Of a stretch of 64,000 nt of DNA, positions 7,931 to 30,470 are shown piece after piece. A model generated the notes under the pieces. It searched no databases. It saw only the letters and a list, made by a program, of their open reading frames with translations, and was not told the origin of the DNA. The stretch's first letter is position 1. The number at the start of each line of letters is the position of its first letter. The translations under genes were made by a program, and so were the position numbers. Source of the stretch: Candidatus Gottesmanbacteria bacterium RIFCSPLOWO2_01_FULL_43_11b (GTDB taxonomy: Bacteria > Patescibacteriota > Microgenomatia > UBA10105 > UBA927); assembly GCA_001780985.1 (NCBI GenBank), contig MFJV01000001.1, positions 158,980 through 222,979 of the forward strand, read 5' to 3'.

Positions 7931-8080
7931 AAAAAAACCGTTCTCCTTCATAAGGGTGAACGGTTCGTCCACGGTACCACCTTATTTGATTCTTAATTCA
8001 AGCTATCACGGGCATTCCCGTTTCTGTTCTTAGCAGAACCGCTTGTCCCGTTCGGAGCGGGACTCAAACGCGTTTCAATA
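7931..8080 (-). promoter_or_regulatory. T-box riboswitch leader with intrinsic terminator, upstream of csaA-proS
   Basis: The minus strand contains aauaAGGUGGUACCGUGG (T-box sequence, 7969..7983). A terminator hairpin (aaccgttc..gaacggtt plus U7) follows at 7931..7965. A short Stem I hairpin gucccg-CUCCGAA-cgggac (8045..8063) has a loop that could present a CCG(A) proline specifier. Confidence 0.7.
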
Positions 8081-17568: not shown

Positions 17569-17611
17569 GAAGAGGTTAGGTTCTTTAAAAGAGGGCGGAA
17601 ATTGGAAAATT

Positions 17612-17755
17612 TAAAGCGTGTGGACCAGCCCCTCGCGAGGAGCTGGTATACGAGGAAGGGGAAAATCGAATAGCCCGCCAGTCGGCGGATAAATCTGCGG
17701 ATACCCCTTGGTAGCGCTCTCTACCACAACAATAGACAGAAATGACTATTGAGGA
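17612..17755 (+). promoter_or_regulatory. glmS ribozyme/riboswitch
   Basis: aA|GCG cleavage-site context at 17615/17616. P1 hairpin gaccagc..gctggt. Conserved core strings ACGAGGA and AUCGAA..UCGGCGGAU. Sits directly upstream of glmS. Confidence 0.75.
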
Positions 17756-17778
17756 GCCCGTCTCTCTTTCTAAACTTC

Positions 17779-19551
17779 ATGTGTGGAATATTTGGCTACG
17801 TTGGTCCTAGCCCTCATGGTGCAAAGATAGTTCTTGAAGGTCTCAAACGACTTGAATATCGCGGTTACGATAGTTGGGGAGTTGCTGTTGTACCTGCTTC
17901 AAAGGGTAAAATTGTCGTAAAGAAAAAAGCCGGAAGAATAGGCAAAGCTAGTGTTTCTGATATGCCAAAAGGGTCTGTTGCGTTCGGGCATACCCGCTGG
18001 GCAACCCATGGAGGAGTTACCGATGTTAATGCACACCCTCACCTTGACTGCACAGGAAATCTTGCTGTCATTCACAATGGTATTTTTGAAAACTATGAGA
18101 GTATAAAGCAGGATCTTATTAAAAAAGGGCACCGTTTTATCTCCCAAACAGATACCGAAGTTATCGCCCACCTCATTGAAGAATATGCAAAGACCATGAT
18201 GTTAAGTAAGGCAGTGCAACGGGCGTATAACGAAATGGAAGGTCTTAACGCATTCATAGTTATCCAGACAAAAGAACACCTCCTCCTTGGGGTAAGAAAT
18301 GGGTCACCCTTAGTCGTCGGATTCGGAGATCCGGAAAATTATTTGGCAAGTGATGCTGCAGCGCTCATTCCCCATACCCGGCAGGTTCATTTTCTTGAAG
18401 ATGATCAAATGGTAATTGTTGGAACTGATCAGGTAAACATATTTAACGCAAGAACCGGTGAACGCATTCGTCCGCTTAAACAGAAACTTACCTGGTCAGC
18501 AGAGCAGGCAGAAAAAGGAAAATTCCCTTATTTCATGCTGAAAGAAATTTATGAACAGCCCGGGCTTATTTCAGAAATTGCCGGAGAATCAACGATCCAA
18601 GCCAAAAAAATTGCGGAGGTTCTTAAAAACGCACATGGCGCCTATATCGTTGGCTGCGGAACTGCCGGATATGCTGCTCTTGCTGCTCAATATCTCTTTT
18701 CAGCCATATCAAACAGACACGTTAACTCTGTTATTGGCAGCGAATTTGGCTACCTCCAAAATTTTCTCGTGAAAAGAAGTGCCGTACTTGCCCTTTCACA
18801 ATCCGGCGAAACCATGGATATTCTTGAGGGAGTCAAGAAAGCCAAAGACAAAGGTGCAAAAATTGTTTCTTTGGTTAATGTCGTCGGATCCTCGCTTTGG
18901 CGGTTATCAGATGTAAGACTCCCAATTGGTGTAGGGCCGGAGAAAGGGGTCGCATCTACCAAAGCATTCATCGGGAAACTTACCCATCTCATACTTCTCT
19001 CTTACGCAATGATAGGCAAAATTACCAAGGGTCAGCGGATACTCACGCGGGCTGCAAAAGCAGCAACCGAGGTTCTCAAAGAGCAGCGGGTGAGTAAAAT
19101 AATGAAACTTGCAAAAAAACTCAAAAATACGGAACATATTTTTGTTATCGGGAGAGGGCTTTCATATCCTGCGGCGCTTGAAACAGCGCTAAAAATTAAG
19201 GAAATTTCCTATATCCATGCCGAGGGCTTGGCCGCAGGGGAACTCAAACACGGCCCACTTGCGCTTGTGACGAAAGGCATTCCCTGCATCGTATTTGCAC
19301 CCAACGATGAAACACAGGGAGCAAATCTTGCGGGAGCCATGGAAATGAAAGCACGAGGTGCGTATATTATCGGGATCTCACCCAAAAAGCATGAGGTTTT
19401 TGATTATTATCTGCCGGTTAAAGACGTGGGAGAGGCAACAATTATTCCCAATGTCATCGTTGCCCAGCTTCTGGCGTACTATTTAGCAATAGAGCGCGGC
19501 TTCGACCCCGATATGCCGAGGAATCTAGCAAAAAGTGTAACAGTAAAATGA
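17779..19551 (+). CDS. glmS: glutamine--fructose-6-phosphate aminotransferase
   Basis: Starts MCGIFGY (Ntn Cys) at ATG 17779, contains two SIS domains, and ends ..AKSVTVK. Confidence 0.93.
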   Translation: MCGIFGYVGPSPHGAKIVLEGLKRLEYRGYDSWGVAVVPASKGKIVVKKKAGRIGKASVSDMPKGSVAFGHTRWATHGGVTDVNAHPHLDCTGNLAVIHNGIFENYESIKQDLIKKGHRFISQTDTEVIAHLIEEYAKTMMLSKAVQRAYNEMEGLNAFIVIQTKEHLLLGVRNGSPLVVGFGDPENYLASDAAALIPHTRQVHFLEDDQMVIVGTDQVNIFNARTGERIRPLKQKLTWSAEQAEKGKFPYFMLKEIYEQPGLISEIAGESTIQAKKIAEVLKNAHGAYIVGCGTAGYAALAAQYLFSAISNRHVNSVIGSEFGYLQNFLVKRSAVLALSQSGETMDILEGVKKAKDKGAKIVSLVNVVGSSLWRLSDVRLPIGVGPEKGVASTKAFIGKLTHLILLSYAMIGKITKGQRILTRAAKAATEVLKEQRVSKIMKLAKKLKNTEHIFVIGRGLSYPAALETALKIKEISYIHAEGLAAGELKHGPLALVTKGIPCIVFAPNDETQGANLAGAMEMKARGAYIIGISPKKHEVFDYYLPVKDVGEATIIPNVIVAQLLAYYLAIERGFDPDMPRNLAKSVTVK

Positions 19552-27053: not shown

Positions 27054-27252
27054 TGGGTGATCCAGGGATCGAACCTGGGACCTCGTTCTTATATCACCCG
27101 AGTGATATTTCACGCAAAATGATAATGTGGGTGCGCATGGAATCGAACCATGTGCCTCTTTCTTATCAGGAAAGCGTTCTACCAGTGAACTACGCACCCT
27201 TCTTCATTTTGCGTGAACGCAGGAACGCGCTCTACCACTGAGCCAATCACCC
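27054..27252 (-). tRNA. interrupted tRNA gene with a 127-nt insert in the anticodon loop (anticodon GCG/Arg if joined at 36/37; identity uncertain)
   Basis: Exon 1 (27252..27218) is gggtgat tg gctc agtggta gagc g cgttc ctgcg. Exon 2 (27090..27054) is aa gaacg aggtc ccagg ttcgatc cctgg atcaccc a. The acceptor, anticodon and T stems are all perfect once the insert is removed. Confidence 0.6.
27128..27199 (-). tRNA. tRNA-Ile (anticodon GAU), nested inside the interrupted tRNA
   Basis: Hand-folded 72-nt cloverleaf: gggtgcg ta gttc actggta gaac g ctttc cuGAUaa gaaag aggca catgg ttcgatt ccatg cgcaccc a. Confidence 0.85.
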
Positions 27253-27267
27253 TTTAAAACAAATTTG

Positions 27268-27339
27268 AGGTGCGGAGGGGAATCGAACCCCTGTGTTGCG
27301 GTTTTGCAGACCGCCGCGTTACCTCTTCGCCACCGCACC
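27268..27339 (-). tRNA. tRNA-Cys (anticodon GCA)
   Basis: ggtgcgg..gcggt cuGCAaa accgc..agggg ttcgatt cccct ccgcacc u. The U73 discriminator is typical of Cys. Confidence 0.85.
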
Positions 27340-27390
27340 AATATGACCAATTGTACCAGATACAAAAAATCCCCTCAACGAGGGGTATTG

Positions 27391-27702
27391 CTAGGATTGA
27401 TTGAAGACTTCTTGAGGAATTTTCTCTATTTCAAAAACAATTGCACCTTTAGGTAGAATGCATTTTGGTGTAACTCCTGCTTCTTTCGTCAGTTCATTAT
27501 TTTCTGCCACTAATCCAGCGGGACCACCGACTGTAACCGCCGAAAGAATTCCCTCTTTATATTTCAACGCTCTCAAAGCACGCATCGTATCAGCGGTTTG
27601 ATCGACAATATAAGAAAGGCTGACGTCGGTACCTCGATGAGATACCCAAACATGACCTTCAATTTCAATATTCCCTCCGCTTGTTAAATGCGCGCGTGGC
27701 AT
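27391..27702 (-). CDS. hypothetical protein between the 16S rRNA and the tRNA genes
   Basis: 103-aa ORF with no motif recognised. Confidence 0.45.
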   Translation of the reverse strand: MPRAHLTSGGNIEIEGHVWVSHRGTDVSLSYIVDQTADTMRALRALKYKEGILSAVTVGGPAGLVAENNELTKEAGVTPKCILPKGAIVFEIEKIPQEVFNQS

Positions 27703-27966
27703 AGAGGTGTTAGTGTAGCAGGATTTCTTTTCTTTGACAATCGAATGGTGACAGGAAGAAATTGAGAGTTGTCACTCAACCATCTTTTATACACTAAAAG
27801 ACGATTTGCTCGAGAGTGACTTTGTCCCGCTCTCAGCGGGACGGATAATCAATCTCATCTTGAATTCCTCGCTCCGATTAGATCGGAGTGTAAATTCTCA
27901 ATGACACTGATTTTATAAATAGAAAGGAGGTGATCCATCCCCAGCTTCGGCTAGGGATACCTTGTT

Positions 27967-28663
27967 CATGTTTATTCCCGGTTTTCACCGGGGCATGGAC
28001 TATATCTTCATCCGCAAAAATTGACGTTTTTCTGGATGAACCGAACCAATTATTTTTGCAAAATCGTTGTAAGACCTTGCCGAAATATAAAATCTCCAAT
28101 AATTCGGATCAACCGTTTTACTAGGATTATGAATTACTCCACAATGAATACTTAATTCTTCTAAATAGTGTTTTACTTGTAAAAGATCTTGCTTGTCCTT
28201 TTGACAAAAATACAAGTAATACCTCACCGAAGAATTTTTAGCAATACCACCTTCTGCATCGAAATAACCTCGGATATATTCGATTTTGTCGTTCTTAGAA
28301 CGTATTTCAATATCTCGTAAAATCTTTTTCGGAAATTCTACTATCCAAAGATTACGAGACTTTCCTTCTTTATATATCCAAGCTCCAACATGTAATTTAC
28401 GAATTCCTATTTTTAGAAACTGCGCAAATTCTCTACTGTTAGTTGCTATTCGATAGGTAGATTGCCGACTGGTACCATCGTGAGCCATTCCCAATAAATA
28501 TGGTTTCGTCATATGCGGCGCCAACGTGTAGTCTCTACGGAGTCCCCGATATAATCAGGGTTCCCTCGGTATTCCCATATGTTGATTATAAACCAAGCAT
28601 GAAGGGTTCACCGATACAGTTGGATTTTCCCATACCCTTACGGATATGGGTCGCAACAAACTT
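27967..28663 (-). mobile_element. group I intron (697 nt) in the 16S 3' region (inside the 1492R primer site), carrying a homing endonuclease ORF
   Basis: It splits AAGTCGT|AACAAGG. The 5' exon ends in U and the intron ends in G. Core strings AGAGACUACACG (28525..28536) and GAUAUAGUCC (27997..28006) flank the ORF. Confidence 0.8.
28000..28524 (-). CDS. LAGLIDADG homing endonuclease (intron-encoded)
   Basis: 174 aa with two LAGLIDADG-like motifs (YLLGMAHDGT and YIRGYFDAEGG). The TAG stop lies inside the intron core element GAUAUAGUCC. Confidence 0.82.
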   Translation of the reverse strand: MAPHMTKPYLLGMAHDGTSRQSTYRIATNSREFAQFLKIGIRKLHVGAWIYKEGKSRNLWIVEFPKKILRDIEIRSKNDKIEYIRGYFDAEGGIAKNSSVRYYLYFCQKDKQDLLQVKHYLEELSIHCGVIHNPSKTVDPNYWRFYISARSYNDFAKIIGSVHPEKRQFLRMKI

Positions 28664-29056
28664 ACGACTTAGTCCCCATCGCTGAGTTCGGCTTCGACCG
28701 TAAAAACGGCCTTCAGCCGCCCCCAACTTTGTTGGCTTGACGGGCGGTGTGTACAAGACCCGAGAACGTATTCACCGCAGCCTTCTGATCTGCGATTACT
28801 ACCGATTCCGACTTCATGAGGGCGGGTTGCAGCCCTCAATCTGAACTGAGGCGAAATTTCAGGGATTTGCTTGCCATTACTAGTTTGCATCCCATTGTTT
28901 TTCGCCATTGTAGGGTGTGTGTTACCCAGGGTATAAGCGCCGTGCTGACTTGACGTCGTCCGTTCCTTCCTCCCCGATACATATCGGGGCAGTCTCCGAT
29001 GACACTTATAACATCGGATACGGGTTGCGCTCGTTCTCCTACTTAAAGGAACACCC

Positions 29057-29087
<31 letters not shown>

Positions 29088-29202
29088 GCTGTGATACCAT
29101 CCTTGCGGATAGCCTACTATTTCTAGCGGGTTAAAACGGTACCATGTCAAACCCTGGTAAGGTTTTTCGCTTTGTCTCGAATTGAACCACACGCTCCACC
29201 GG

Positions 29203-29234
<32 letters not shown>

Positions 29235-29625
29235 TAATCTTGCGATCGTACTCCCCAGGCGGTCTGCTTAACGCGTTAGCTTACGTCAGTCCCCCTTGCG
29301 GCGGACCAACTAGCAGACATGCGTTTAGGGCTAGGACTACGCAGGTCTCTAATCTGCTTCGCTCCCCTAGCTTTCGTGTCTCAGCGTTAGGTGTGGGCCA
29401 GAAAGGTGCCTTCGCCTTTGGTGTTCCTCATGATATCAACGCATTTCACTGCTTCACCATGAGTTCCCCTTTCCTCTCCCATCCTCAAAGACTCCCCATC
29501 TCGAACCCAACGCCGAGGTTAAGCCTCGGGCTTTCAGGTTCGATGCGGAAATCCGCCTACACGACACTTTACGCCCAGTGAATCCGGATAACGCTTGCAC
29601 CCTACGTATTACCGCGACTGCTGGC

Positions 29626-29880
29626 CCGCCACAATTTTTTGTAGCGAACTTTGGACTATATCATCACCCCACAGATTGGGGGTCTCGCGTGTAGTCTCTG
29701 AGGACTCTCCCCGCCATCCTTTCATTATAAATGAAGGCGGAGGTTGCCTGCTGATTGTCTTGATACATGCTTGCTTTCGCAAAACTATTTCGCGGACATA
29801 TCAAGGTGTTCCAGCATATAGCGAGATTTTCTTTTACCGTATTACTACAGTAACTACGCACCATCCGATTACATCGAATC
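29626..29880 (-). mobile_element. ORF-less group I intron (255 nt) in the 16S 515-region
   Basis: It splits AACTACGT|GCCAGCAG. It has the same AGAGACUACACG (29688..29699) and GAUAUAGUCC (29653..29662) core strings as the other intron, with a short P8-like hairpin between them. It starts after U and ends in G. Confidence 0.75.
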
Positions 29881-30286
29881 ACGTAGTTTGTAGGTGCTTA
29901 TTCGCCAAACCTCGATGATCTGGCAAAAGAGGTTTACATACCGAAATACTTCATCCCTCACGCGGCGTCGCTCGGTCAGGCTTTCGCCCATTGCCGAATA
30001 TTCCTAGTTGCTGCCATCCGTAGATGTATAGCCCGTGTCTCAGTGCTATTGTGGGGGGTCGCGCTCTCACGCCCCCTACCCGTCATCGCCTTGGTAGGCC
30101 ATTACCCCACCAACAAGCTGATAGGAGCAAGGCCGCTCTTCCTCCGTGCCGTTACGCACTTTGATCTTACGACCTCATGGAATATTACCCCGTCTTTCGA
30201 CGAGCTATGTTCCAGAAAAAGGTACGTTCCTTGCTTATACTCACCCGTCCGCCACTAATCTTTCGACCGTTCAACTTGCATGCCTA

Positions 30287-30329
<43 letters not shown>

Positions 30330-30470
30330 AAAAAAAATTAACGTCCCGGATATCATGATTCGCTTACGCTCATCACCATCCGGGTCCGGCTGATGTCGCA
30401 ACGCGACATAATAGCCGGATTCCTATCACCATTCGTTTGTCAAATGTTAATGTGCGACTCTCAATGAGCG

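Follow-up and report, generated by a model that had tools for sequence, protein, structure and literature searches.

Inserts in the 16S rRNA genes of CPR bacteria have been analyzed in a set of 380 genes, 48% of which carry them, and 134 of the inserts are group I introns according to Rfam, including 49 that lack an open reading frame (ORF) (Tsurumaki 2024, PMC11270868). The inserts cluster at recurrent sites, designated 16IS1-10, and the LAGLIDADG_2 and LAGLIDADG_3 families share the sites 16IS5 and 16IS10. Four sites (16IS4, 5, 6, and 10) are given in the same survey as not previously reported in any known bacteria, and CPR rRNA inserts as a class are described as being removed from transcripts (PMC11270868). 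Self-splicing 16S introns have also been described in giant sulfur bacteria (Salman et al. 2012, cited in PMC11270868). Group I introns of patescibacterial tRNA genes are located in anticodon loops, have been assigned to subgroup IA, and self-splice in vitro, and rRNA group I introns are recorded from 15 bacterial phyla (PMC13011429).

In this study, a 255-nt insert was analyzed in a 16S rRNA gene located within a 64-kb stretch of DNA (64,000 nt; hereafter the window). This insert (intron A, 29880 to 29626 on the minus strand) is very probably a compact ORF-less group I intron that is located after U516 and spliced from the 16S precursor as proposed below, based on its predicted structure and on comparison with introns at the same site elsewhere. 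The gene contains another group I intron near its 3' end (intron B).

Host gene and boundaries of the insert

The sequence-only reading, which was made without database searches, had placed a 255-nt insert at 29626-29880, splitting the 515 region of the 16S gene, and these limits are exact. Read directly on the minus strand, the locus is ...ACAAACUACGU / GAUUCGAUG...(255 nt)...UUGUGGCGG / GCCAGCAGUCGCGGUAAUAC, where slashes mark the junctions. The first base of intron A is a G (29880), and its 3' end reads ...GGCGG, the final G (29626) being the terminal G (omegaG). Intron A separates AACUACGU from GCCAGCAGUCGCGGUAA, and the insertion point is after E. coli U516 in the 530 loop of 16S rRNA. 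This numbering follows landmarks that we take to be the start of the 515F primer at G515, pseudouridine 516, m7G 527, and G530. Removal of intron A joins AACUACGU to GCCAGCAGUCG, the joined flanks form a perfect 530-loop sequence, and the intron-less site reads AACTACGTGCCAGCAGTCGCGG. Because intron A and the 3' exon both start with G, the boundaries are ambiguous by one base; sliding leaves the spliced product unchanged, and a 5' splice site after U516 is favored because of the canonical U.G pair in P1. The site is uninterrupted in other CPR 16S genes among the fetched loci, indicating that intron A is optional and precisely bounded.

Intron B breaks up the final ~45 nt of the gene, and for this reason the Rfam bacterial SSU match (28616-30335, minus strand) stops at 28616, where model position 1533 is forced, and misplaces the gene's 3' end. 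By direct reading, the gene reaches ~27920 and ends in ...GGAUCACCUCCUUUCU, with two inserts inside, such that automatic annotation would truncate the 16S gene of this window. The exon boundaries in Table 1 give a spliced 16S rRNA of about 1464 nt; a sum of 1462 nt produced by script includes the intron B base 28663 and misses the exon 3 bases AAC (27964-27966). No 23S gene follows the 16S gene, and the Rfam scan of the window found no LSU rRNA in any part of the 64 kb. Exon identity to the 16S genes of Gottesmanbacteria assemblies (L018-L021 and L079) is 86-93%. Exon identity, spliced 16S length, and the absent 23S gene all fit Microgenomatia, and the host fits a Gottesmanbacteria-like CPR bacterium.

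The region downstream of the 16S gene (27128-27702, minus strand) contains a 103-aa ORF without a Pfam match (27702-27391) and two tRNA genes (27339-27268 and 27199-27128). Other RNA elements in the window are a glmS ribozyme match (17604-17761, plus strand; 43.7 bits, cut-off 37) located upstream of a 600-aa ORF (17749-19551), and a T-box-like match (7949-8077, minus strand) that, at 33.4 bits, is far below the cut-off of 93.

Table 1. Exons, introns, and structural elements of the interrupted 16S rRNA gene; positions are those of the window.
Feature	Position	Strand	Sequence or size	Basis or remarks
16S rRNA exon 1	29881..30335	-		5' end to E. coli U516; Rfam SSU match and P1 pairing
Exon strand of P1	29888-29881	-	AACUACGU	Last 8 nt of exon 1
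Intron A	29626..29880	-	255 nt	Group I, without ORF; RF00028 57.2 bits, R1 244.9 bits, MFE fold, ORF domain check
P1			AACUACGU / GCGUAGUU, 8 bp	Threaded; U516.G wobble at 5' splice site
P10	29863-29860	-	UGGU	Just upstream of guide sequence; can pair with 3' exon GCCA
Internal guide sequence	29852..29859	-	GCGUAGUU	Intron strand of P1; first G opposite U516
P2 hairpin	29836..29851	-	ACUGUA-GUAA-UACGGU	6 pairs threaded, 5 kept by R1
P3	29821..29826 with 29688-29683	-	UCUCGC (5' strand) / GCGAGA	
P4-P5 domain	29749..29816	-		
P4	29816-29811 with 29754-29749	-	UGCUGG / UCAGCA	
P5	29805-29798 with 29766-29759	-	8 bp	
P5b hairpin	29782-29771	-	UUGC-GAAA-GCAA	Sole extension of P5
P6 hairpin	29703..29748	-	GG...UC base, then CUCCGCC / GGCGGGG	
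R element	29699-29688	-	AGAGACUACACG	Contains 5' strand of P7
P7	29692..29696 with 29658-29654	-	GACUA / UAGUC	Pseudoknot with P3
P8 hairpin	29667..29681	-	CCCCA-AUCUG-UGGGG	
S element	29662-29653	-	GAUAUAGUCC	Contains 3' strand of P7
P9 hairpin	29627..29646	-	CGCUACAA-AAAA-UUGUGGCG, 8 bp	Directly before terminal G
16S rRNA exon 2	28664..29625	-	Starts GCCAGCAGUCGCGGUAA	
Intron B	27967..28663	-	697 nt	Group I, after ~U1498 of the same 16S
LAGLIDADG_3 ORF	28524-28000	-	174 aa	In P8 loop of intron B
16S rRNA exon 3	27920..27966	-	AACAAGGUAUCC...GGAUCACCUCCUUUCU	True 3' end of gene

Group I identity and structure of intron A

The Rfam group I intron model (RF00028) matches 29631-29890 on the minus strand with 57.2 bits (E = 7e-12 for the whole window), above the gathering score of 50, and all of its 253 model positions (1-253) are matched by intron A. 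Threading by hand placed P1-P9, the P3/P7 pseudoknot, P10, and the terminal G with canonical pairs throughout, and a small hairpin lies within the P1 loop of the threaded structure. An unconstrained MFE fold found every nested helix (z = -3.58). The covariance-model check named in the sequence-only reading thus came out in favor of a group I fold, and the P3/P7 pseudoknot can be threaded. That reading had also singled out two strings shared by introns A and B. Each is exact at the positions given for it, namely AGAGACTACACG at 29688-29699 and GATATAGTCC at 29653-29662, and recurs once, at 28525-28536 and 27997-28006, respectively, with no other exact copy in the window. The hairpin CCCCCAAUCUGUGGGG between the two strings, which had been called P8-like, is P8 in the threaded structure.

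P7 is expected to be the guanosine-binding site. The additional helices P7.1 and P7.2 of subgroup IA were not found in intron A, in which the linker between P7 and P3' is just ACA and that between P3' and P8 is a single C. In this respect, and in having no P5abc, the modeled structure fits a compact bacterial type. Three ORFs overlap intron A (107, 72, and 57 aa), and none of them has an endonuclease domain; therefore, the description of intron A as ORF-less holds.

Introns at the same site in other genomes and covariation

When species-representative genomes, one for each species, were scanned for the S element with the 3' exon after it, 19 true introns at the 516 site were found. They occur in Gottesmanbacteria, Levybacteria, the Parcubacteria group, Saccharibacteria, unclassified CPR, Omnitrophota (L008, L009, and L022), and a Planctomycetales assembly (L007). 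One locus from Zixibacteria (L004) was rejected as a chance match to the scan pattern, its 516 site being uninterrupted. In metagenomes, a scan for the P4'-P6-R core strings of intron A returned at least 119 stretches, with at least 16 loci at the 516 site after duplicate removal. A survey of this insertion site, as proposed in the sequence-only reading, thus finds it occupied by introns in many other 16S genes.

The size of intron A is unexceptional in this company. Although 255 nt had been taken to lie near the small end of group I ribozymes, the 29 short introns measured at the 516 site range from 235 to 414 nt with a median of 259, to which intron A is close. The intron of Azoarcus has about 205 nt.

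A covariance model (R1) was constructed from five close relatives, extending from P2 to the terminal G, and P1 and P10 were checked apart from it by script. In the R1 structural alignment of 29 introns that occupy the 516 site in assemblies of CPR, Omnitrophota, and Planctomycetales, 95.1% of the pair cells are standard pairs, a percentage that is inflated by the fitting of the alignment to the R1 structure, compared with 35-42% in controls in which partners were slid 1-3 columns. Of 52 pairs, 36 are altered on both sides, and none of 500 shuffles reached any of the observed pairing measures. The slid and shuffled controls and the many double changes argue that the alignment bias is not the whole effect. 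A MAFFT alignment of six relatives misaligned the versions without P2 and was left out of the pair counts; two loci for which the script picked doubtful 5' boundaries (L123 and L137) were not relied on.

The changes are distributed unevenly among the helices. All pairs in P5 (eight), all five pairs of P2 kept by R1, and all modeled pairs in P8 (three) and P9 (seven) are altered on both sides, as are six of seven in P6 and five of six in P3, for which 100% of the cells are paired. P4 is invariant in all 29 sequences, and P7 is nearly so, with 95-100% of its cells paired. Covariation in P2, P3, P5, P6, P8, and P9 together with invariant P4 and P7 is the pattern that a catalytic core should show.

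Independently of R1, the guide sequence was found to track exon variants at positions 511-514, with the exon/guide combinations ACUACGU/GCGUAGU, ACUCCGU/GCGGAG, ACUUCGU/GCGAAGU, AUUCUGU/GCAGAAU, and ACUCUGU/GCAGAG. The guides of all relatives have a G opposite U516 and keep GG(U/C) for P10. This co-variation strongly, if indirectly, supports P1 formation and splicing of the 516-site introns. Taken together, the RF00028 match, the full threading, the covariation in 29 introns, the guide-exon co-variation, and the lack of an endonuclease domain bear out the original identification of an ORF-less group I intron at 515/516.

Inheritance and diversity of the 516-site introns

Intron A is 78-79% identical (relative to the longer sequence) to the introns of its closest hosts (L020, L021, and L050), and intron identity and exon identity run roughly in parallel. 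A structurally different version without P2 is present in two hosts that are just as close (L018 and L079). Since intron A has no homing endonuclease of its own, it was probably inherited mostly vertically within Gottesmanbacteria, and the P2-less version suggests that this inheritance was not simply vertical. Endonuclease-bearing introns do exist at the 516 site. Two loci (L084 and L012) both have LAGLIDADG_2 proteins, a family distinct from the LAGLIDADG_3 protein of intron B; L084 belongs to the core family of intron A (R1 115 bits), and L012 has a different core with no core-string match and no R1 hit at E <= 0.01. No relative of these two proteins was found in the 64-kb window. Intron A may be either a derivative of the endonuclease-bearing CPR introns at this site or a form that never carried the gene.

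The introns from Omnitrophota (L008, L009, and L022) and Planctomycetales (L007) score 93-132 bits with R1, above some CPR introns such as that of a Levybacteria genome (L014, 76 bits). The intron in L009 is located on a 221-kb contig, which makes mis-binning unlikely there. Transfer of 516-site introns between phyla is possible.

Several structural variants were observed at or near this site. Introns starting with GCCAGCC... were found in L005, L007, L008, L011, L016, L022, L090, L097-L101, L119, L127, and L140. Their opening GCCAGC copies the first six bases of the 3' exon and pairs with GGCUGG just 5' of the guide; at a later stage, this GGCUGG could form an extended P10 with the real 3' exon. 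Intron A is without this feature. A 650-nt intron at the 516 site in L057 (4452-5101, minus strand) contains three copies of a ~120-nt segment (GCCAGCCCCGUUAAAUGAAUGCC...UAUUUAACGGGG), one as a P1 extension and two after P9, each of which opens with the 3'-exon-start mimic GCCAGC. The triple segment may be a genuine tandem duplication or else a repeat introduced by assembly. Four genome loci (L010, L015, L017, and L006) have another intron type at or beside the 516 site, with additional P7.1/P7.2-like helices separating P7 from P3' and with A rather than G as the base before GCCAGCAG. Their 3' splice site may be located one base further on, with insertion after G517, or else the terminal nucleotide may not be G.

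Core strings beyond the 516 site

Among the matches listed, the core strings of intron A also occur at ~1498 (with an insert of ~550 nt in P8) and ~790 of 16S, at two or more 23S sites of two classes, and in tRNA genes. Across these sites, the listed matches agree at 29 specified positions of the P4'-P6-R core, with the guide fitted to each site. The tRNA loci among these matches include L029, L048, L049, L068, and L104, along with about 10 more, and L068 has two tandem intron-bearing tRNA-Arg genes. On the loci with tRNA flanks, ARAGORN found no tRNA under default settings; with its intron option, it identified tRNA-Arg(UCU), tRNA-Lys(UUU), and others with inserts of 209-292 nt in the anticodon loops. 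The listed tRNA introns score 34-98 bits with R1. Most of them are G+C-rich (0.60-0.71), suggesting that their hosts may not be CPR bacteria.

One tentative explanation, which we regard as possible and rather less than likely, is that one compact ribozyme design, mostly without an endonuclease, has spread across sites and phyla, e.g., by reverse splicing. Alternatively, the core strings may merely be conserved at the subgroup level. If the former were true, it would contradict the suggestion of separate maintenance routes for the tRNA and rRNA introns of Patescibacteria (PMC13011429).

Relationship between introns A and B

Intron B has a P1 (GUCGU / GCGAC) and a P2 with a GUAA loop, and RF00028 gives it 38.3 bits, below the cut-off. 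The stop codon (TAG) of its LAGLIDADG_3 ORF lies within the S element GAUAUAGUCC, and the reading frame spans the 3' strand of P8 and J8/7 into P7.

The sequence-only reading regarded the two introns as relatives, one with and one without a homing endonuclease, and proposed their alignment as a test of common ancestry. With the ORF removed, A and B have 143 matches, compared with 131 +/- 3.5 for shuffled sequence, which makes their likeness beyond the conserved motifs scarcely greater than chance, and common ancestry as a pair finds little support in this count. The Rfam consensus of the two shared strings reads AaAGACUAAAcG and AGAUAUAGUCu, which identifies these strings as general R and S core elements of group I introns. 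With R1, intron B scores 27.9 bits, the ~1498-site introns of other organisms score 68-97 bits among the matches listed, and the 516-site introns score 42-271 bits, a comparison that is biased by the choice of the metagenome loci on the core strings of A. The similarity between A and B still does not exceed the family background. The relatedness claim stands for membership in one broad class; as a pair that differs only by the endonuclease gene, A and B are not well supported by these comparisons.

The 530 loop and the 515F primer site

A mismatch to the 515F primer had been noticed in the exon adjacent to intron A, and this is confirmed. In exon 2 (GCAGTCGCGG / GCAGUCGCGG), position 525 (29617) is U rather than C, which corresponds to base 11 of 515F. 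Its partner in the 530-loop pseudoknot, position 506 in exon 1 (29891), is A rather than G, such that an A-U pair replaces the G-C pair at 506-525. With A506 opposite, the change to U525 is compensatory. Both A506 and U525 are common to all Gottesmanbacteria and Levybacteria relatives examined, and the U525 variant, typical of Microgenomatia, is real but already known. At the neighboring position, U505 opposite C526 is a mismatch; the CPR sequences examined show 505/526 as U/C, C/U, or G/A, not as Watson-Crick pairs.

Almost all Microgenomatia have mismatches to the V4 primers, and the degenerate positions in a redesigned 515F include base 11 (PMC10943839). In this gene, intron A also interrupts the primer site, separating primer base 2 from base 3. 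Given the split site and the C-to-T change at base 11, amplicon surveys and automatic rRNA annotation handle this organism poorly.

Proposed splicing pathway and alternative explanations

The following pathway is proposed for intron A. In the precursor rRNA, the guide GCGUAGUU would pair with the exon end AACUACGU to form P1, placing U516.G at the cleavage site. The P3-P9 core, kept together by the P3/P7 pseudoknot, would bind a free guanosine in P7, and this guanosine would attack after U516. UGGU would then pair with GCCA of the 3' exon (P10), and the terminal G (29626) would take the place of the free guanosine in the binding site. Finally, the freed 3'-OH of U516 would attack after the terminal G, and joining of the exons would give a continuous 530 loop. 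Catalysis by intron A and its absence from mature rRNA are inferred from these sequence features.

It is conceivable, and in our view unlikely, that intron A needs a protein helper, which could be a host factor or a maturase activity of the LAGLIDADG protein of intron B. Some LAGLIDADG proteins are maturases, the LAGLIDADG_3 ORF is located about 1.1 kb downstream in the same transcript, and intron A has few peripheral stabilizing elements, with P5 extended only by the short P5b. However, intron A has a complete, canonical core, and self-splicing is the general rule for small group I introns of bacteria. Moreover, close relatives of intron A are found in 16S with or without an evident nearby endonuclease-bearing intron, and the protein of intron B is expected to be specific for its own site. 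Intron B could also be viewed as the source of intron A itself, which would then be a recent copy within the same genome that moved to a new site and lost the endonuclease gene. Common to both introns are the identical R and S strings, a GUAA-looped P2, GAAAA as the J2/3 linker, and the overall layout. This scenario is nonetheless very unlikely, since the shared strings are general group I consensus, the match count is near that of shuffled sequence, intron B scores lower with R1 than the listed ~1498-site introns elsewhere, and the closest relatives of intron A occupy the 516 site of other Gottesmanbacteria.

Bacterial rRNA is known to contain fragmenting intervening sequences, which probably also occur in CPR 23S (PMC11270868). 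Intron A could by analogy be a decayed relic or an intervening sequence, either retained or cut by RNase III without religation to give a fragmented 16S. We consider this extremely unlikely, because a relic would maintain none of the features seen here, namely intact catalytic-core helices, a P4 and a P7 that do not vary between phyla, a guide that co-varies with the exon, and a terminal G. The 530 loop is also at the decoding center, where harm would be expected from 255 additional bases or from a break. An assembly chimera or artifact might be suspected given that the window is probably from a metagenome assembly, one of its proteins being found on metagenome contigs. The chance of this is close to negligible, as the same insert is found at the same nucleotide in dozens of independent assemblies with compensatory changes, and its flanks join into a perfect 530-loop sequence. 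The candidate descriptions of sister introns, an unusually small ribozyme, a relic or intervening sequence, and an assembly artifact were rejected on the evidence above, and a group I intron spliced from the 16S precursor is the preferred reading.

Comparison with known systems

Group I introns at S516 of nuclear SSU rDNA are known from Naegleria, red algae, and fungi. These eukaryotic introns belong to IC1 or IE, are larger, and have His-Cys box endonucleases where any are present. When set beside intron A by description, they interrupt the same point in the universally conserved 530 loop; in contrast to them, intron A is of a compact bacterial type and has no P5abc. A literature search for S516 combined with bacterial terms returned no match.

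Among bacterial systems, the 16S introns of giant sulfur bacteria resemble those of this gene in being group I introns in a bacterial 16S, present several per gene, and in some cases carrying LAGLIDADG ORFs (Salman et al. 2012, cited in PMC11270868). However, their hosts are Gammaproteobacteria, unlike the CPR host of intron A. The patescibacterial tRNA introns are from the same phylum and are likewise small and mostly without an endonuclease (PMC13011429). They were assigned to subgroup IA and are located in anticodon loops, whereas intron A occupies a 16S site and has no P7.1/P7.2.

The closest resemblance is to the inserts of CPR 16S genes (Brown et al. 2015, as cited in PMC11270868), which share the host clade, the gene, and the Rfam signature with intron A. 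As in the gene studied here, the survey describes ORF-less forms, fixed recurrent sites, several inserts per gene, and LAGLIDADG_2 or LAGLIDADG_3 ORFs in sister introns (PMC11270868). The presence of LAGLIDADG_2 at 516 and of LAGLIDADG_3 at ~1498 matches the sharing of 16IS5 and 16IS10 reported there, and by this correspondence with the families shared with 16IS10, the 516 site is probably 16IS5. Nothing essential differs, and intron A is one more instance of the ORF-less group I introns already described in CPR 16S (Tsurumaki 2024). It provides one more well-resolved example, with a full structure and covariation, of the intron load on CPR rRNA genes. The practical points outweigh the conceptual ones, and the set of 29 introns together with R1 could be the starting point of a covariance model specific to this site, with which such genes could be annotated.
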